Sequence record: KY014601.1
From: Escherichia phage Utah
Strand: one strand, 5' to 3'
Length of the DNA stretch: 59,024 bases
How positions within the stretch are numbered: the stretch's first letter is position 1; each line of letters opens with the position of its first letter. A program made the translations under genes and the position numbers. Shown in pieces: positions 4,856 to 18,494 of this stretch. The notes under the pieces are model-generated. The model was not told the DNA's origin. It saw nothing but the letters and a program-made list of their open reading frames with translations, and searched no databases.

Positions 4856-6185
4856 TAAGTCACTGTTAGTCCGCATCATGCGGGAATTCGGCGGTGGCGG
4901 CCACTCAATCTTCGCGCCTTCTGCGTCAGCGCGTTGGATCGCATGTTCTGGAAGCCTGATAGCCGGGCTTTTCGAGCATGACGAAACCATCTACGAGGCG
5001 GCGGAAGGCACGGTGGCCCACGGAATCGCCGAACAATGGCTGCGAACGGATGTCCGGCCAACCCATTTAATCGGTACGGTCGAGACGATCACGGAAGGCG
5101 GTGTCAGCCATGACATCCCCATTACTCGGTCAATGCTCGACTCGGTTCAGGAGTACGTTGACTGGTGCCGATTTGAAGAGGGTGAAATGTTCACGGAAAT
5201 CCGGGTCTGGTTTACCGACCTGATGCCGCGAGCGAACCCGGATGAACCTGACGAAGACCCGATCGAGTTTGTCGCTCAGGGCGGAACGGCGGATAATATC
5301 ATCATCCGCGACCGAACCTTGATCGTGACCGACCTGAAATACGGGACTGGCGTTCAGGTTTTCGCGGAAGGGAACCCGCAGGCGCTACTTTACGCGTACG
5401 GTGCGTACCGCGCTTTCTCGGATGAATACGAGTTTGACCGTATTGTCATCCGGATCGCGCAGCCGAGGCTCGACCATTTCGATACGTGGGAAATCACGAT
5501 TGACGAATTGTTAGAGTTCGCGGAGTATGCCCGGGAGCGAATTGCAGCGGCATGGAGCCTTACCGCGCCGCGCCGCGCATCCCTGAAAGGGTGTCGTTTT
5601 TGCCGGGCAGCACATAACTGCGCAGCGATAGCGTACATGATGGAATGCGCAGTGGGCGGGGATGTGGAATTCCTTGAAGCTGAATTCGGGGAGGAAGAAA
5701 TGTCAGTATTGCGTGATGCGCTGGCGCAGGAGTATAAATTCCGGCGTGCGCAGTTCGGGAACCTGACAACCGAGCAGATGGCGAAGATCCTGCCATACCG
5801 CAAGGTGGTCGAAAACTGGTTCTCGCGCCTTGACTTCGAACTGGAACGCCGCGCAATGAACGGCGAGAAGGTACCGGGTCAAAAGCTGGTGGAGTCGCGG
5901 ACAAACCGCAAATTCGCCAACGAGAAAGATGCGATCGCGCTGTTCAAGTTCCTCGATATCGAAGAGGACAAGTACATCGAGCGCAAACTGCGTACCCCGG
6001 CGCAGATGGAAGAAGTGCTCAGGGATGAATTGGGCGTGTCCCGGGCTGGCGCGCCGAACATCATCGCGGGGATCGTCTACAAGCCGGAAGGCAAGCCTAC
6101 ACTGGCACCGCTTACCGATAAGCGGCCACCACTGGACGGCAAGTATTCCGGGGCGTGGGACGACGAAGATGATGACGAAGTGTAA
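4848..6185 (+). CDS. PD-(D/E)XK nuclease with Cas4/RecB-like Fe-S cysteine cluster (DUF2800-like)
   Basis: 445 aa; N-terminal Cys in WIACSGS plus C-terminal CRFCRAAHNC; DxK-type motif IVTDLKYG; acidic tail ...WDDEDDDEV; position next to SSB and PolA. Confidence 0.65.
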   Translation: MSSKSLLVRIMREFGGGGHSIFAPSASARWIACSGSLIAGLFEHDETIYEAAEGTVAHGIAEQWLRTDVRPTHLIGTVETITEGGVSHDIPITRSMLDSVQEYVDWCRFEEGEMFTEIRVWFTDLMPRANPDEPDEDPIEFVAQGGTADNIIIRDRTLIVTDLKYGTGVQVFAEGNPQALLYAYGAYRAFSDEYEFDRIVIRIAQPRLDHFDTWEITIDELLEFAEYARERIAAAWSLTAPRRASLKGCRFCRAAHNCAAIAYMMECAVGGDVEFLEAEFGEEEMSVLRDALAQEYKFRRAQFGNLTTEQMAKILPYRKVVENWFSRLDFELERRAMNGEKVPGQKLVESRTNRKFANEKDAIALFKFLDIEEDKYIERKLRTPAQMEEVLRDELGVSRAGAPNIIAGIVYKPEGKPTLAPLTDKRPPLDGKYSGAWDDEDDDEV

Positions 6186-13384: not shown

Positions 13385-13639
13385 ATGACACCAGAAGAAT
13401 GCCGCGCGCAATATCGCCTCATGCTCAAAGAAGCGATGGATGCGTACCACCAATTAAACCTCGGCGGCTCGGTGCGCGTCGTGGTGGATCAGAACAGTGA
13501 ACGCGTGGAATATACCGCAGCGAACCGACAAAGCCTATGGGCCTACATCGTTCGACTGCAAAACGCGATTAATTCGGACAACCCTTGCGCGGCCTTCATG
13601 GGCCTACCAAGTTCACCAGCAGGATTCTTATTCCCATGA
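13385..13639 (+). CDS. Head-tail joining protein (lambda gpW-like)
   Basis: 84 aa; RVVVDQNSERVEYTAANRQSLWAYIVRLQ and C-terminal PAGF resemble lambda gpW; sits between TerL and portal. Confidence 0.6.
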   Translation: MTPEECRAQYRLMLKEAMDAYHQLNLGGSVRVVVDQNSERVEYTAANRQSLWAYIVRLQNAINSDNPCAAFMGLPSSPAGFLFP

Positions 13640-15315
13640 CCGAGAAAAAGAGAAGCACTACACAACGGGCGAAGAAAGCGGCAAAGACCGCCGACGTCGC
13701 TACGTTGGACGCCACGCCGCAGAATCCTTCGGCACTCGGTGGCGGCTTAGAGGGGGCTGAACGGAACACGCGTGAAATGTTCCGCTGGACGCCTGCCATC
13801 ATTTCACCAGACCAGCAGATCGCCCAAGACGGTACGCTGGCGCTTTCGCGTGCGCAGGACATCGTACAGAACGACGGCTACGCATTTGGCGCGGTGGCGA
13901 TTCACCGTGACAGCGTCGTCGGCTCGCAGTACAAACTCAACTCGAAACCGAATTCGCTGGTGCTCGGCGCGCCGGAAGGTTGGGCGGATGAATTTCAGGA
14001 GGTAGTCGAGGCGCGCTTCAACATGGTGGCCGAGTCTCCTGAAAACTGGTTCGATGCCCGCCGGATGAACACGCTGACCGGGCTTGTCCGTCTGGCCGTT
14101 GGCGGCTTCATCATGACCGGGGAAGTTCTGGCGTCATGCGAGTGGATGAAGCCGAAGGGAACCCGTATGCAGCGCCGTCCGTTCGGCACTGCGATCCAGA
14201 TGATTTCGCCGTACCGTCTGTCCAACCCGGACAACATCATGGACGACAAGTATCTGCGCTCCGGCGTCAAACTGGATGAAATGGGCGCTCCGATCGGCTA
14301 CTGGCTGCGTAAAGCGTTCCCGGGCGACCCGACTGACCTCGAACAATGGCGATGGGAATACCAGCCCGCTCGCTTCGATTGGGGCCGACGTCGGATGATC
14401 CACATCATCGAAGCGCTGCTGCCGGGCCAGACTCGCGGTATCAGTGAAATGGTCGCAGCGTTGAAGCAGATGAAGATGACCCGAAACTTTCAGGAAGTCA
14501 CGCTGCAAAACGCCATCGTCAACGCGACCTACGCGGCCGCCATCGAATCAGAATTGCCGTCTGACGTGGTCTTCAATCAGATGGGGATGGGACAGACGCC
14601 GTTCGGCGACATCCTGAAAACCTACATGGGGAGTCTGGCCGAGTACATCGCCGGATCGAAAAACATCGCAATCGACGGGGCGAAAATCCCGCACCTGTTC
14701 CCCGGTACGAAACTGAAAATGCAGCCCGCAGGAACGCCGGGCGGAGTCGGAACCGATTATGAAGAATCGTTGCTCAGGAACATCGCCGCATCACTCGGCC
14801 TTTCGTACGAGCAGTTCAGCCGCGACTATACGAAAACGAACTACTCTTCTGCCCGCGCTTCGATGGCTGAAACGTGGAAGTACATGGAAAGCCGTAAAAA
14901 GCTGGTAGCCGACCGTTTCGCGTCGATGATTTATACGTTGTGGTTGGAAGAAGAGGTTAACGCTGGTAATGTTCCACTGCCGCCGGGCTTCACTTGGCGC
15001 GACTTCTACGACCCGATGAAACGTGACGCGCTTTGCAACGCAGAATGGATCGGCGCGAGTCGCGGCCAGATCGACGAGAAGAAAGAAACCGAAGCCGCTA
15101 TCCTTCGCATCAAGAATGGCCTGTCAACGTACGAAGCAGAAATCGCCCGCCTCGGTGGGGACTTCCGCGAAGTATTCAAACAGCGCGCCCGCGAAGAAGG
15201 CATCATCAAAGATTTGGGCCTTGATTTCTCCGGCAAGATGGTCGAAGGGACGGAGGCAAGCGGTTCAACTGGCAGCACTGGCTCGGACAACAACGAAGAG
15301 GATACGAAGGAATGA
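13636..15315 (+). CDS. Portal protein (lambda gpB-like)
   Basis: ATG 13636 overlaps gpW stop (ATGA); about 560 aa; position between W and prohead protease. Confidence 0.8.
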   Translation: MTEKKRSTTQRAKKAAKTADVATLDATPQNPSALGGGLEGAERNTREMFRWTPAIISPDQQIAQDGTLALSRAQDIVQNDGYAFGAVAIHRDSVVGSQYKLNSKPNSLVLGAPEGWADEFQEVVEARFNMVAESPENWFDARRMNTLTGLVRLAVGGFIMTGEVLASCEWMKPKGTRMQRRPFGTAIQMISPYRLSNPDNIMDDKYLRSGVKLDEMGAPIGYWLRKAFPGDPTDLEQWRWEYQPARFDWGRRRMIHIIEALLPGQTRGISEMVAALKQMKMTRNFQEVTLQNAIVNATYAAAIESELPSDVVFNQMGMGQTPFGDILKTYMGSLAEYIAGSKNIAIDGAKIPHLFPGTKLKMQPAGTPGGVGTDYEESLLRNIAASLGLSYEQFSRDYTKTNYSSARASMAETWKYMESRKKLVADRFASMIYTLWLEEEVNAGNVPLPPGFTWRDFYDPMKRDALCNAEWIGASRGQIDEKKETEAAILRIKNGLSTYEAEIARLGGDFREVFKQRAREEGIIKDLGLDFSGKMVEGTEASGSTGSTGSDNNEEDTKE

Positions 15316-16628
15316 GCAACCACGTAAGAGCGAGCGTCTCAATGGCGCTCAGTCGAATGAACGGCCAGCCGATCGCCATTCGCGAGAATGACCCGACGCT
15401 GCTGACCAACATGCAGCAGATGATGTCCTGCGATGACGAAGATTTTCAGGAGCGCGCTGAACAGCAGATGCGCGAAAACCTGTGTGCAGCGTACGGCGTT
15501 GGCCGACCGTCTGCGGACAAGCCTTTCGCCTTCTCGAACGGCCTCGCCATCATCCCGATTCACGGCACCCTGATTAACCGCTATGGCGGGTATTACTACG
15601 GCTACGTGACGGGCTACAATTTTATCCGCAGTCAGCGTAATGCAGCGCTGGCCGACCCAGATGTCGAGGCTATCATCTACGACGTTAACTCGAACGGCGG
15701 GGAAGCAGCAGGCTGTTTCGAGCTGTCACAGGAAATGTTTGATACACGCGGCGAGAAACCTTCGCTGGCGGTTGTCGATTCAAACTGCTATTCTGCGGCA
15801 TATGCGTTGGCGAGCGCAGCGGATAAAATCGTTGTAACGCCGTCCGGCGGTGCCGGAAGCATCGGTGTTATCGCCCTCCACATCGACATGTCGAAGATGT
15901 TGGCGGACATCGGTATCACCGTGAATATCATCAAGTCCGGGGAGCACAAAGCCGACGGCAACCCGTACGAACCAATGAGCGATGAAGTACGAGCAGACTG
16001 GCAAGCGAGCGTAGATTCAATGCGTACCGACTTCGTCAATCTTGTCGCTCAAAACAGGGATTTAGATCCGAAAGTGGTGCGCGACACCGAAGCGATGTGC
16101 TATAACGCTGGTGAAGCGATGTCAATCGGTCTAATTGACGCGGTATCAACGCCTTCGAAGGCTGTTACCGAATTCCTCAACGGGCCGTCCGATAACAGCC
16201 CGGATCACTCAGGAGCGAACGCAATGAGCTTTACGCAAGAAGAAATGGACGCAGCCCGCGCAGAGGCGGCGACCAACGAACGAACCCGCATTGCCGGGAT
16301 CATGGGCTGTGATGCAGCGGCTAACCGTACCAAACTGGCAAACCACATCGCCTTCAACACGAATATGTCCGTTGAAGACGCGACTGCAATGCTGACCAAT
16401 TCCGCCGAAGAACCGAAAGCCGCTGTTACGACTACCGTCGTTGACGCTGCTGCGCCGGGTAAAACCGGAACCGAAGCGAAGGGTGACAGCCCGTTCGATT
16501 CAGTGATGGCAAGCGCGGAACATCCTAACGCTGGTGCCGATGCAGGCAACGAGCAGGAAGGCGCGAAAGAAACGGCTGGCCTGATGGCGGCAATGACCGC
16601 TGTCGCTGGCAACAACATGGCTAAGTAA
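15312..16628 (+). CDS. Prohead protease, S49/ClpP-class (lambda gpC-like), with Ala-rich C-terminal extension
   Basis: 438 aa; S49-like active-site region VVDSNCYSAAYALASAADKIVVTPSGGAGSIGVIA; C-terminal third is Ala/Thr-rich and scaffold-like. Confidence 0.75.
   Translation: MSNHVRASVSMALSRMNGQPIAIRENDPTLLTNMQQMMSCDDEDFQERAEQQMRENLCAAYGVGRPSADKPFAFSNGLAIIPIHGTLINRYGGYYYGYVTGYNFIRSQRNAALADPDVEAIIYDVNSNGGEAAGCFELSQEMFDTRGEKPSLAVVDSNCYSAAYALASAADKIVVTPSGGAGSIGVIALHIDMSKMLADIGITVNIIKSGEHKADGNPYEPMSDEVRADWQASVDSMRTDFVNLVAQNRDLDPKVVRDTEAMCYNAGEAMSIGLIDAVSTPSKAVTEFLNGPSDNSPDHSGANAMSFTQEEMDAARAEAATNERTRIAGIMGCDAAANRTKLANHIAFNTNMSVEDATAMLTNSAEEPKAAVTTTVVDAAAPGKTGTEAKGDSPFDSVMASAEHPNAGADAGNEQEGAKETAGLMAAMTAVAGNNMAK
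16224..16628 (+). CDS. Candidate nested scaffolding protein (Nu3-like), in-frame internal start within protease gene
   Basis: ATG 16224 is in frame with 15312 ORF and preceded by AGGAG (16211-16215); encodes the Ala-rich C-terminal 134 aa; mirrors lambda C/Nu3. Confidence 0.4.
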   Translation: MSFTQEEMDAARAEAATNERTRIAGIMGCDAAANRTKLANHIAFNTNMSVEDATAMLTNSAEEPKAAVTTTVVDAAAPGKTGTEAKGDSPFDSVMASAEHPNAGADAGNEQEGAKETAGLMAAMTAVAGNNMAK

Positions 16629-16642
16629 TAGGGGATCTTCGG

Positions 16643-17062
16643 ATGAATCTTTTGACTATGATGGCCGCCTCCAGCCTGCCTAACTATCTGGCTGGAAACG
16701 GCGACCTCGGCTCTTGGGAGCCAACCCAAATCTTCGCAGGTGAAGCGGATATTGTGACCGAAGGCGGTGCCGCTGGCGCTGACATCGAGATCTATCAGGT
16801 TATCGCGAAGAACGCCGCTGGCGCTATGGTGCCACATGACCCGACTGCGACCACTGGCACGTCTCCGGACGAAGTACCAGCACCGCAGTCTGTGGCTATC
16901 GGTATCGCAGCGCAGCCCGCGAAGTCCGGCCAGAACGTGCCGTACTACATCGGTGGTGTATTCAACCACGCTGCCCTCGGTTGGCACGCGTCGCTTGATA
17001 CGCTGGCAAAACGTCAGGCGGTCTTCGACCGTACTAACATCCACATCGGCAATCTGTACTAA
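16643..17062 (+). CDS. Head decoration protein (lambda gpD-like)
   Basis: 139 aa; between protease/scaffold and major capsid gene; Ala/Gly-rich like gpD. Confidence 0.55.
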   Translation: MNLLTMMAASSLPNYLAGNGDLGSWEPTQIFAGEADIVTEGGAAGADIEIYQVIAKNAAGAMVPHDPTATTGTSPDEVPAPQSVAIGIAAQPAKSGQNVPYYIGGVFNHAALGWHASLDTLAKRQAVFDRTNIHIGNLY

Positions 17063-17074
17063 GGAGCAGCGCAA

Positions 17075-18139
17075 ATGGCTGGACTTTACACTACTTACCA
17101 ACTGCTCGAAGTACAGCGCAAGCTGAAAACGCTGCCTGCGTTCTTCCTGCAATGGTTCCCGCGCCAGATTAACTTTCAGGAAGACATGATTGCCTTCGAT
17201 AAAGTTATTCAGGACGTAACCCGCGTCGCTCCGTTCGTTGCACCCAACGTACAGGGCCGCGTGATCAAAGAAAGCGGCTACAACACGAAGACTTTTAAAC
17301 CTGCCTACGTGAAGCCGAAACATGTCATCGACCCTAACATGATCATCCCGCGTCAGCCGGGTGAAGCGTTGGGTACTGGCACCCTGTCTATCGCGCAGCG
17401 CCGCGACCGTGTCATCGCATATCTGCTGATGAAACACCGCGCCATGCACGAAAATACGTGGGAATGGATGGCGGCGCAGGCTGCGCAATACGGTTACGTT
17501 GACGTTCAGGGTCAGGACTACCCGCTGGTGCGTGTAGACTTCGGCCGTGATGCAGCGCTGACCATGACAACCGACTGGACTGCCAGCGGCGTCACCCTGA
17601 TGGACATGATTGCTGACCTGCGTGACGGTCAACGTCTGGTGTCCGATAAGTCCATGTCCGGCACCGTGATCCGCGACTACGTCTTCGGCGGCGACGCTTG
17701 GGATCAGTTCGTCAAGGTCGGCGGTAAAGAACTGTGGGGCAAAGATGGCCTGATGGACTCAACCATCCGTGGGTCTGAAACCAACGTTACCCGCCTGTGG
17801 GACGACGTGGAAGGCGTTCAGTACATGGGCGAACTGGTAGGGGCTAACGGTGCTGGCCGTATGCGTATTTGGGTGAACACTCAGAAATACCGCGACCAGA
17901 ACGACCAAGAACAGTTCCTGATGAAGCAGAAGGCGGTAATGGGTATTTCCTCGGCGATCGAGGGCGTACGTTGCTTCGGCGCGATTCTGGACAAAGGTGC
18001 GGGCTATCAGGCGCTTGATTACTTCCCGAAAATGTGGGATCAGGAAGACCCGAGTGTGGAATACCTGATGTCTCAGGGCGCACCACTGATGGTTCCAGCA
18101 GACCCGAACGCGTCGTTCCTGCTGACCGTGATGTCCTAA
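17075..18139 (+). CDS. Major capsid protein (lambda gpE-like)
   Basis: 354 aa; N-terminal YTTYQLLEV and YVKPKH motif, C-terminal SQGAPLM resemble lambda gpE (YTTAQLLA, YVKPKH, SAPLM). Confidence 0.85.
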   Translation: MAGLYTTYQLLEVQRKLKTLPAFFLQWFPRQINFQEDMIAFDKVIQDVTRVAPFVAPNVQGRVIKESGYNTKTFKPAYVKPKHVIDPNMIIPRQPGEALGTGTLSIAQRRDRVIAYLLMKHRAMHENTWEWMAAQAAQYGYVDVQGQDYPLVRVDFGRDAALTMTTDWTASGVTLMDMIADLRDGQRLVSDKSMSGTVIRDYVFGGDAWDQFVKVGGKELWGKDGLMDSTIRGSETNVTRLWDDVEGVQYMGELVGANGAGRMRIWVNTQKYRDQNDQEQFLMKQKAVMGISSAIEGVRCFGAILDKGAGYQALDYFPKMWDQEDPSVEYLMSQGAPLMVPADPNASFLLTVMS

Positions 18140-18200: not shown

Positions 18201-18494
18201 ATGCCAAAACGTAAAGTTCTCCAGACCGTCATCGTTTACCGCGACGGCGCGCGTATCAAACCGTCCATCGGCGAGATCTTCGATTTCAAACAAGCCGAAC
18301 TGGACAGCATCAACAAAATCAACCCGGATGCCATCGGCCGCCCGGTGATGGAAGTTGACATGGAAAATCAGGCAGCGCAGGAAGCCGCAGCGCAGCAGGC
18401 GAAAGCTGAAACGTCCAAAAAAGACGAGAAGGCTGACGGTGCTAAGAAAAACGCCAAAGACGATAAAAAGTCTGGCGCGGAAGACGAAGTCTAA
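18201..18494 (+). CDS. Hypothetical head-associated protein with Lys-rich region and acidic C-terminus (FI position)
   Basis: 97 aa; ends ...KKSGAEDEV; location equals lambda FI slot. Confidence 0.45.
   Translation: MPKRKVLQTVIVYRDGARIKPSIGEIFDFKQAELDSINKINPDAIGRPVMEVDMENQAAQEAAAQQAKAETSKKDEKADGAKKNAKDDKKSGAEDEV

Follow-up and report, generated by a model that had tools for sequence, protein, structure and literature searches.

Does the capsid maturation protease gene of Escherichia phage Utah encode one protein or two? Utah is a flagellotropic, chi-like siphophage of Escherichia coli with 56.4% G+C and cos ends (PMC5374247), and its relatives are classed in the Casjensviridae in phage records. 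In the stretch of DNA analysed here (59,024 nucleotides [nt] of record KY014601.1, hereafter the window), the gene lies at positions 15312-16628 (1,317 bp). It is 97-99.9% identical to genes of more than 100 chi-like phages of Salmonella, Escherichia, Klebsiella and Yersinia, and more than 100 records of chi-like phages label its equivalent as a capsid or head maturation protease. The initial annotation of the locus proposed that an in-frame ATG inside the gene would express its C-terminal part separately, giving a protease and a scaffold from one reading frame as in phage lambda C and Nu3. The lambda C/Nu3 mechanism has been textbook knowledge since 1980, the year in which Shaw and Murialdo reportedly described the C/Nu3 overlap (Nature 283:30). 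The lambda record places the coding sequence (CDS) of nu3 in frame within C, with both ending at one stop codon. Lambda Nu3 is treated as the essential scaffolding protein and C as the protease (PMC3224144; PMC10695390). Judged from sequence comparison, one reading frame of Utah very probably gives both a protease and a separately initiated, Nu3-like scaffold of 134 residues, as lambda C/Nu3 does. The evidence comprises the anatomy of the gene, its homology to lambda C, the deep conservation of the ribosome-binding signal and start codon, the position of that start at a domain boundary, and the absence of another scaffold candidate among the head-module genes.

The internal start codon and its domain setting

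The internal ATG stands at 16224-16226 exactly as proposed, in frame as codon 305 of 438 [(16224 − 15312)/3 = 304]. It is preceded by the strong AGGAG Shine-Dalgarno (SD) sequence that the initial annotation had described and by a spacer of 8 nt (CGAACGCA, 16216-16223). Predicted pairing of this site with the anti-SD of 16S rRNA (−6.6 kcal/mol) was the strongest among the 29 internal in-frame ATG, GTG and TTG codons of the gene; the gene's own start at 15312 pairs at −5.8 kcal/mol, and its SD is poorly placed. The product initiated at codon 305 would be Ala-rich and 134 residues long, again as described, with 23.9% Ala compared with 11.8% in residues 1-304.

Searched over both strands of the window, the pattern AGGAG-N5-10-ATG occurred 12 times, against 5.6 ± 2.5 times in shuffled sequences. 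About 10 of these sites open a long reading frame (open reading frame, ORF) as its first start and one is a spurious 22-codon match, while 16224 is the only site that is both in frame and deep within a long ORF; in Utah the pattern marks real starts very specifically. Such within-genome counts alone are not decisive, and the 16224 site gains its weight only from being kept in homologues. No internal promoter signal above chance was found (one weak sigma-70-like match at 15904-15931 vs. 2.9 expected in the region), with the qualification that late promoters may deviate from the consensus. Translation from a polycistronic mRNA fits, because the internal promoter signal does not exceed chance.

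The start codon also occupies a distinctive place in the predicted protein structure. AlphaFold was run on the 438-residue protein with a 62-sequence alignment (mean predicted local distance difference test [pLDDT] score of 85), and Met305 falls in the lowest-confidence, disordered segment of the model, between two confidently predicted domains (Table 1). The N-terminal domain matches Pfam PF01343 (Peptidase_S49) at residues 147-287 (E = 3.6e-33), and SppA crystal-structure sequences from the PDB match residues 75-288. Ser161 and Lys213, the presumed catalytic dyad, are invariant in 62 homologues, and S161 aligns with lambda S166. Beyond the linker, the helical domain of residues 309-363 is made up of helices at 309-332, 334-338, 340-349 and 354-363 and carries an ER.RI.GI..C motif common to lambda Nu3, in which R326 is invariant and I330 nearly invariant. 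Two short helices (394-401 and 422-432) interrupt the C-terminal tail, where M399 is invariant and P405 nearly so. Modeling of the 134-residue product alone gave the same picture as within the full protein. As the nested start lies exactly at the domain boundary, the short product is predicted to be a complete folding unit. The model had no structural match among solved scaffold proteins, and a search of the 134-residue product against Pfam and NCBIfam returned no family. In PHROG, phrog_17040 (a 129-position profile) matched the product end to end (E = 2e-50), and the C-terminal region gave weak matches to the families “head scaffolding protein” and “capsid assembly protein”.

Table 1. Positions of the protease-scaffold gene of phage Utah, its parts and the adjoining head genes (window coordinates)
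Feature	Position	Strand	Basis or remark
Full-length protease-scaffold gene, gpC-like, 438 aa, 46.3 kDa	15312..16628	+	ORF; Pfam Peptidase_S49; lambda C homology
S49 (SppA-like) serine protease domain, residues 1-290	15312..16181	+	AlphaFold pLDDT mostly >90
Disordered inter-domain linker, residues 291-308, holding the internal ribosome-binding site and start	16182..16235	+	pLDDT <50 at 299-307
Shine-Dalgarno AGGAG for the nested start	16211..16215	+	Encoded by TCA GGA GCG (Ser-Gly-Ala)
Nested Nu3-like scaffold candidate ORF, 134 aa, 13.6 kDa, isoelectric point 4.55	16224..16628	+	Stop codon in common with the protease
Conserved helical domain of the nested product, residues 309-363	16236..16400	+	pLDDT ~97
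Ala/Gly/Glu-rich C-terminal tail, mostly disordered	16401..16625	+	pLDDT 43-68
Portal, lambda B family	13636..15315	+	Pfam PF05136, E = 5.6e-86; start after the equivalent Chi annotation
Head decoration protein, lambda D family	16643..17062	+	Pfam PF02924, E = 1.2e-8
Major capsid protein, lambda E family, 354 aa	17075..18139	+	Pfam PF03864, residues 6-352, profile positions 1-329/329

Conservation of the linker start among homologues

Homologous genes were taken from annotated phage records and 80 IMG/VR loci, and removal of truncated or frameshifted genes and of exact duplicates left 75 unique proteins (32-100% identity, lambda included). The linker segment was defined as the region from the end of the S49 domain (equivalent to Utah A284) to the invariant motif Arg (Utah R326). 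Start contexts of 33 nt that were <80% identical were counted as separate lineages, giving 53, which the binomial test treats as independent. An in-frame start was present within the linker segment in all 75 unique homologues, with GGAG, AGGA or GAGG ahead of it in nearly all of them. Counted by lineage, one of these SD cores occurred at −17 to −5 from 50 of the 53 linker starts, compared with 18 of 617 (2.9%) other internal in-frame ATGs. In 36 of 53 genes (4.4 expected; binomial P ∼ 1e-26) the SD of the linker start outranked that of every other internal start, and median pairing energies were −6.6 kcal/mol for linker starts vs. −1.7 kcal/mol. A matched control, which removes “best-of-window” bias by using windows of equal length from other parts of these genes, gave an ATG with an SD core in 48 of 53 linker windows and in 117 of 2,919 (4.0%) control windows. 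Across the lineages, spacers ranged from 4 to 11 nt (mode 6) and products from 110 to 158 residues (median 134), and the linker start codon was ATG in 50, GTG in two and TTG in one. In 74% of lineages the Met of the linker start is followed by Ser, Thr or Ala, compared with 39% of other internal Mets.

The linker itself varies in length and sequence and is essentially unalignable between genera; as its protein sequence cannot be aligned, it is the translation signal that is conserved. Six diverged chi-like lineages follow the pattern x-GGA-GCN-x-GCN-ATG, in which GGA is invariant. The codon ahead of it varies (TCA, CCG, ACA, CCA or ACT), as do both Ala wobble positions and the intervening codon, and only 3-30% of the Gly codons in the genes of these lineages are GGA. 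Codon comparisons of this kind support selection at the nucleotide level on the SD-forming GGA. On balance, we favor the view that nested initiation is an ancestral, near-universal trait of the gpC-like S49 protease family and not a peculiarity of lambda, the linker conserving only the RNA signal (SD plus AUG).

Lambda C/Nu3, other phages and alternative readings

The likeness to lambda C and Nu3 drawn by the initial annotation has gained in substance: homology extends over both the protease and the Nu3 parts, the start stands at the equivalent domain boundary, and the signal is kept in nearly all homologues. By BLASTP, the 438-residue Utah protein was 32% identical to lambda gpC over 385 columns (E = 1e-47), with the alignment reaching through the Nu3 part, where ERTRIAGIMGCDAAANR aligned with ENSRIMGILNCEEAHGR. 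Utah residues 305-438 compared with lambda residues 309-439 (the 131-residue Nu3 region) gave E = 4e-7. In both phages, an S49 protease domain precedes a C-terminal region of homologous sequence, the nested gene ends in frame at the stop codon of the protease gene, and the portal gene lies upstream and the decoration and capsid genes downstream. The sequence at lambda codon 309 is tcAGGAGGgcgaATG and at Utah codon 305 tcAGGAGcgaacgcaATG, and both SDs lie within a Ser-Gly “TCA GGA G” after the protease domain. Lambda codon 309 has the best internal SD of its gene by a wide margin (−10.8 kcal/mol), and its product would have 131 residues compared with 134 in Utah. There are also differences. The Utah SD is weaker (AGGAG with 8 nt vs. 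AGGAGG with 4 nt in lambda), the internal Met is 18 residues from the ER.RI motif in Utah and ∼50 in lambda, and overall identity to lambda C is only 32%, with expression and function demonstrated for lambda alone.

The family-conserved lambda start is not the annotated one: it lies at 5342, where codon 309 of C opens a 131-residue product, whereas the RefSeq record (NC_001416) starts nu3 at 5132, giving a product of 201 residues that begins inside the protease domain. The start at 5132 has no SD at a functional distance, the nearest GGAG being ∼15 nt upstream. In the phage 434 record, the note on the nu3 homologue opens with “real Nu3 start ...”. If the family-wide start position holds, the RefSeq lambda nu3 start (5132) would be wrongly placed and translation would really begin at codon 309 (5342).

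Nested starts of the same kind have been annotated in two phages closer to Utah. Xylella phage Salvo (gp59/gp58) has a nested CDS with a ribosome-binding site at the equivalent linker Met, codon 307, annotated as “scaffold protein”, and Burkholderia phage BcepNazgul (gp61/gp60) has one at codon 306. Both phages belong to the Casjensviridae, are syntenic with Utah and encode proteins 38-48% identical to the Utah protein; their annotations appear to be predictions, and anti-SD ranking picks the same nested codons. A product name in Kokobel1 cites “scaffolding domain Nu3”. Among more distant systems, Mu takes its scaffold gpZ in frame from the part of protease gene I that encodes the C-terminus, P2 gpO is a processed fusion and not separately initiated, and the protease families of both phages differ from S49. 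What they have in common with Utah, beside which they are set by description only, is that one gene gives both protease and scaffold. The herpesvirus scaffold UL26.5 has its own promoter and transcript; UL26/UL26.5 is not homologous to the Utah gene, for which internal translation initiation on one mRNA is proposed and no promoter signal was found. Heads of the HK97 type resemble that of Utah in having the protease gene just upstream of the capsid gene. A scaffold-less head of this type was considered and rejected for Utah, whose capsid protein is of the E family with no N-terminal extension and whose protease is of the S49 family. In lambda, P2 and Mu, a single gene encodes protease and scaffold (PMC8508860).

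Several points weigh against a nested scaffold start in Utah. By a rough estimate, about one internal in-frame AGGAG-ATG per genome is expected by chance, and 16224 taken alone is not beyond chance. Accessibility of the mRNA at 16224 is unremarkable (82nd percentile of gene positions by an RNAplfold-type unpaired probability, −18 to +6), although the measure is non-discriminating, since the true capsid-gene start reached only the 36th percentile. The Kokobel1 lineage has a weak SD (−4.5 kcal/mol). The Chi reference record (KM458633, Hendrix and Casjens) lists the full-length protease only and no scaffold, as do the other chi-like records inspected. No mention of a scaffold in chi-like phages was found in the literature reached, including two genome announcements and the YSD1 capsid-structure paper, and no N-terminal sequence, ribosome profiling or procapsid proteomics was found for Utah, Chi or chi-like phages. 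A virion mass-spectrometry table for PIN1/PIN2 includes the head maturation protease. The chance expectation, together with the single product annotated for Chi, Utah-like phages and most other records, would suit a gene that makes only the 438-residue protein, the C-terminal domain scaffolding or targeting in cis like P2 gpO and the internal AGGAG-ATG being coincidental; fused protease-scaffold genes have been described for P2 (PMC8508860). We nonetheless consider this very unlikely. An SD and ATG occur in 48-50 of 53 lineages within an unconserved linker, against a background of 3-4%, GGA is invariant despite synonymous drift, all spacers fall within the functional 4-11 nt, and the lambda homologue nu3 is a separate essential gene.

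The start might instead be used to make a 134-residue product that is not the main scaffold but, for instance, a chaperone of portal incorporation, a regulator of the protease or a competitor, or the fragment might arise mainly from autoproteolysis of the linker. Lambda Nu3 is reported to be needed for portal incorporation and to bind C, E and itself (PMC3224144), roles that go beyond a simple scaffold; the lack of a match between the model and any solved scaffold structure points the same way, and the linker, predicted to be disordered, could be open to protease attack. This too is unlikely. Pfam and PHROG searches revealed no other scaffold candidate among the head-module ORFs, and the capsid protein has neither a delta domain nor a scaffold extension at its N-terminus, because the 329-position Phage_cap_E profile covers the 354-residue protein end to end. 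The product is moreover homologous to lambda Nu3, a named scaffolding protein, and proteolysis alone leaves the conserved SD unexplained. It is hardly credible, finally, that the true nested start is another codon, whether the ATG at codon 312 (16245) or one earlier within the protease domain as in the GenBank lambda nu3. Utah does have further in-frame Mets at codons 237, 262, 270 and 312, and the RefSeq lambda nu3 described above begins in the protease domain; but the best SD is at codon 305 in Utah and at codon 309 in lambda, the SD-bearing start always lies within the linker across the family, and codon 312 has no SD.

Production of a protease and a Nu3-like scaffold from one frame, the reading we prefer, could proceed as follows; internal initiation, the protease-to-scaffold ratio, scaffold function and degradation in Utah are parts of it that we infer by analogy with lambda. 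One late polycistronic mRNA would carry two initiation sites in the same frame. Initiation at 15312 would give the 438-residue protease-linker-Nu3-like fusion, probably at a low level, and is probably coupled to translation of the portal gene, because the start overlaps the portal stop codon in an ATGA and its SD is poorly placed. Ribosomes binding at AGGAG 16211 would start independently at ATG 16224 and make only the last 134 residues, probably in excess. This short product, a small, acidic, Ala-rich protein predicted to consist of a helical bundle and a disordered tail, is read as the scaffold because of its homology to lambda Nu3 and because the module holds no other candidate. As a procapsid scaffold it would co-assemble with the portal and major capsid proteins and later be degraded. 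As the C-terminal sequence is common to both products, a few protease molecules would enter the procapsid with the scaffold, and the S161/K213 protease would then digest the scaffold and itself.

The head module, split genes and significance for chi-like phages

The head module of Utah runs from the large terminase through the Ad1 adaptor (lambda W family), portal, protease and decoration genes to the capsid gene (Pfam/PHROG), the same order as A-W-B-C/Nu3-D-E in the lambda record. The TGA stop of the portal gene overlaps the ATG of the protease gene in an ATGA at 15312-15315, and a second such overlap joins the Ad1 adaptor gene to the portal gene at 13636-13639; the ATGA overlaps along Ad1, portal and protease suggest translational coupling along the head operon. 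For the portal gene, the mechanical ORF list gives a TTG start at 13585, compared with the ATG equivalent to 13636 in the Chi annotation. Directly after the capsid gene, roughly at the position of lambda FI, lies a 97-residue ORF (18201-18494, plus strand) with a Lys/Glu/Ala-rich tail. It is kept in chi-like phages, belongs to phrog_7559, a family of unknown function, and carries the name “hypothetical protein gp18” in Chi. On the minus strand, a 475-codon ORF with a TTG start (16205-17632) extends across the whole decoration gene and into its neighbours, taking in the 3′ end of the protease gene on one side and the 5′ half of the capsid gene on the other; it probably results from codon bias in genes rich in G+C. 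No tRNA or transfer-messenger RNA genes were detected by ARAGORN over the whole window, in agreement with the published description of phage Chi.

Two records show the protease gene in pieces. In Salmonella phage 35 (KR296689), a 1-nt deletion near locus 1426 (equivalent to window 16148) lies 76 nt upstream of the internal start, and the shifted frame ends at a TGA that overlaps the internal ATG (ATGA; window 16224-16227). The record accordingly has a “prohead protease-like protein” that ends exactly at the start of a separate 134-residue “prohead protease”. Either a sequencing error or a natural separation of protease and scaffold accounts for the split; if the deletion is real, the phage would be a natural “unfused” variant whose protease has no scaffold domain. 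In Proteus phage P16-2532 (MN840486), the record has two CDSs in a row (515-1543 and 1570-1791) for the protease homologue, each named “prohead protease”; this may be one more case of a frameshifted or split gene.

The nested gene of Utah is an unannotated case of a well-known arrangement that leaves existing concepts unchanged; its value lies in annotation and in the generality of the arrangement across the family. More than 100 chi-like genomes, including the Chi reference, list no scaffold, and a nested CDS at the equivalent of 16224 would supply this missing essential head-assembly function. The signal, an SD with an ATG in the disordered linker that follows the S49 fold, is recognizable by sequence alone. 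Chi-like phages serve in work on flagellotropic infection and on the biocontrol of Salmonella, and knowledge of the scaffold is needed for in vitro capsid assembly and engineering. For the protease family as a whole, the survey suggests how the ratio of protease to scaffold is set and how the protease is delivered to the procapsid, namely by two starts of unequal strength in a single frame and a common C-terminus.

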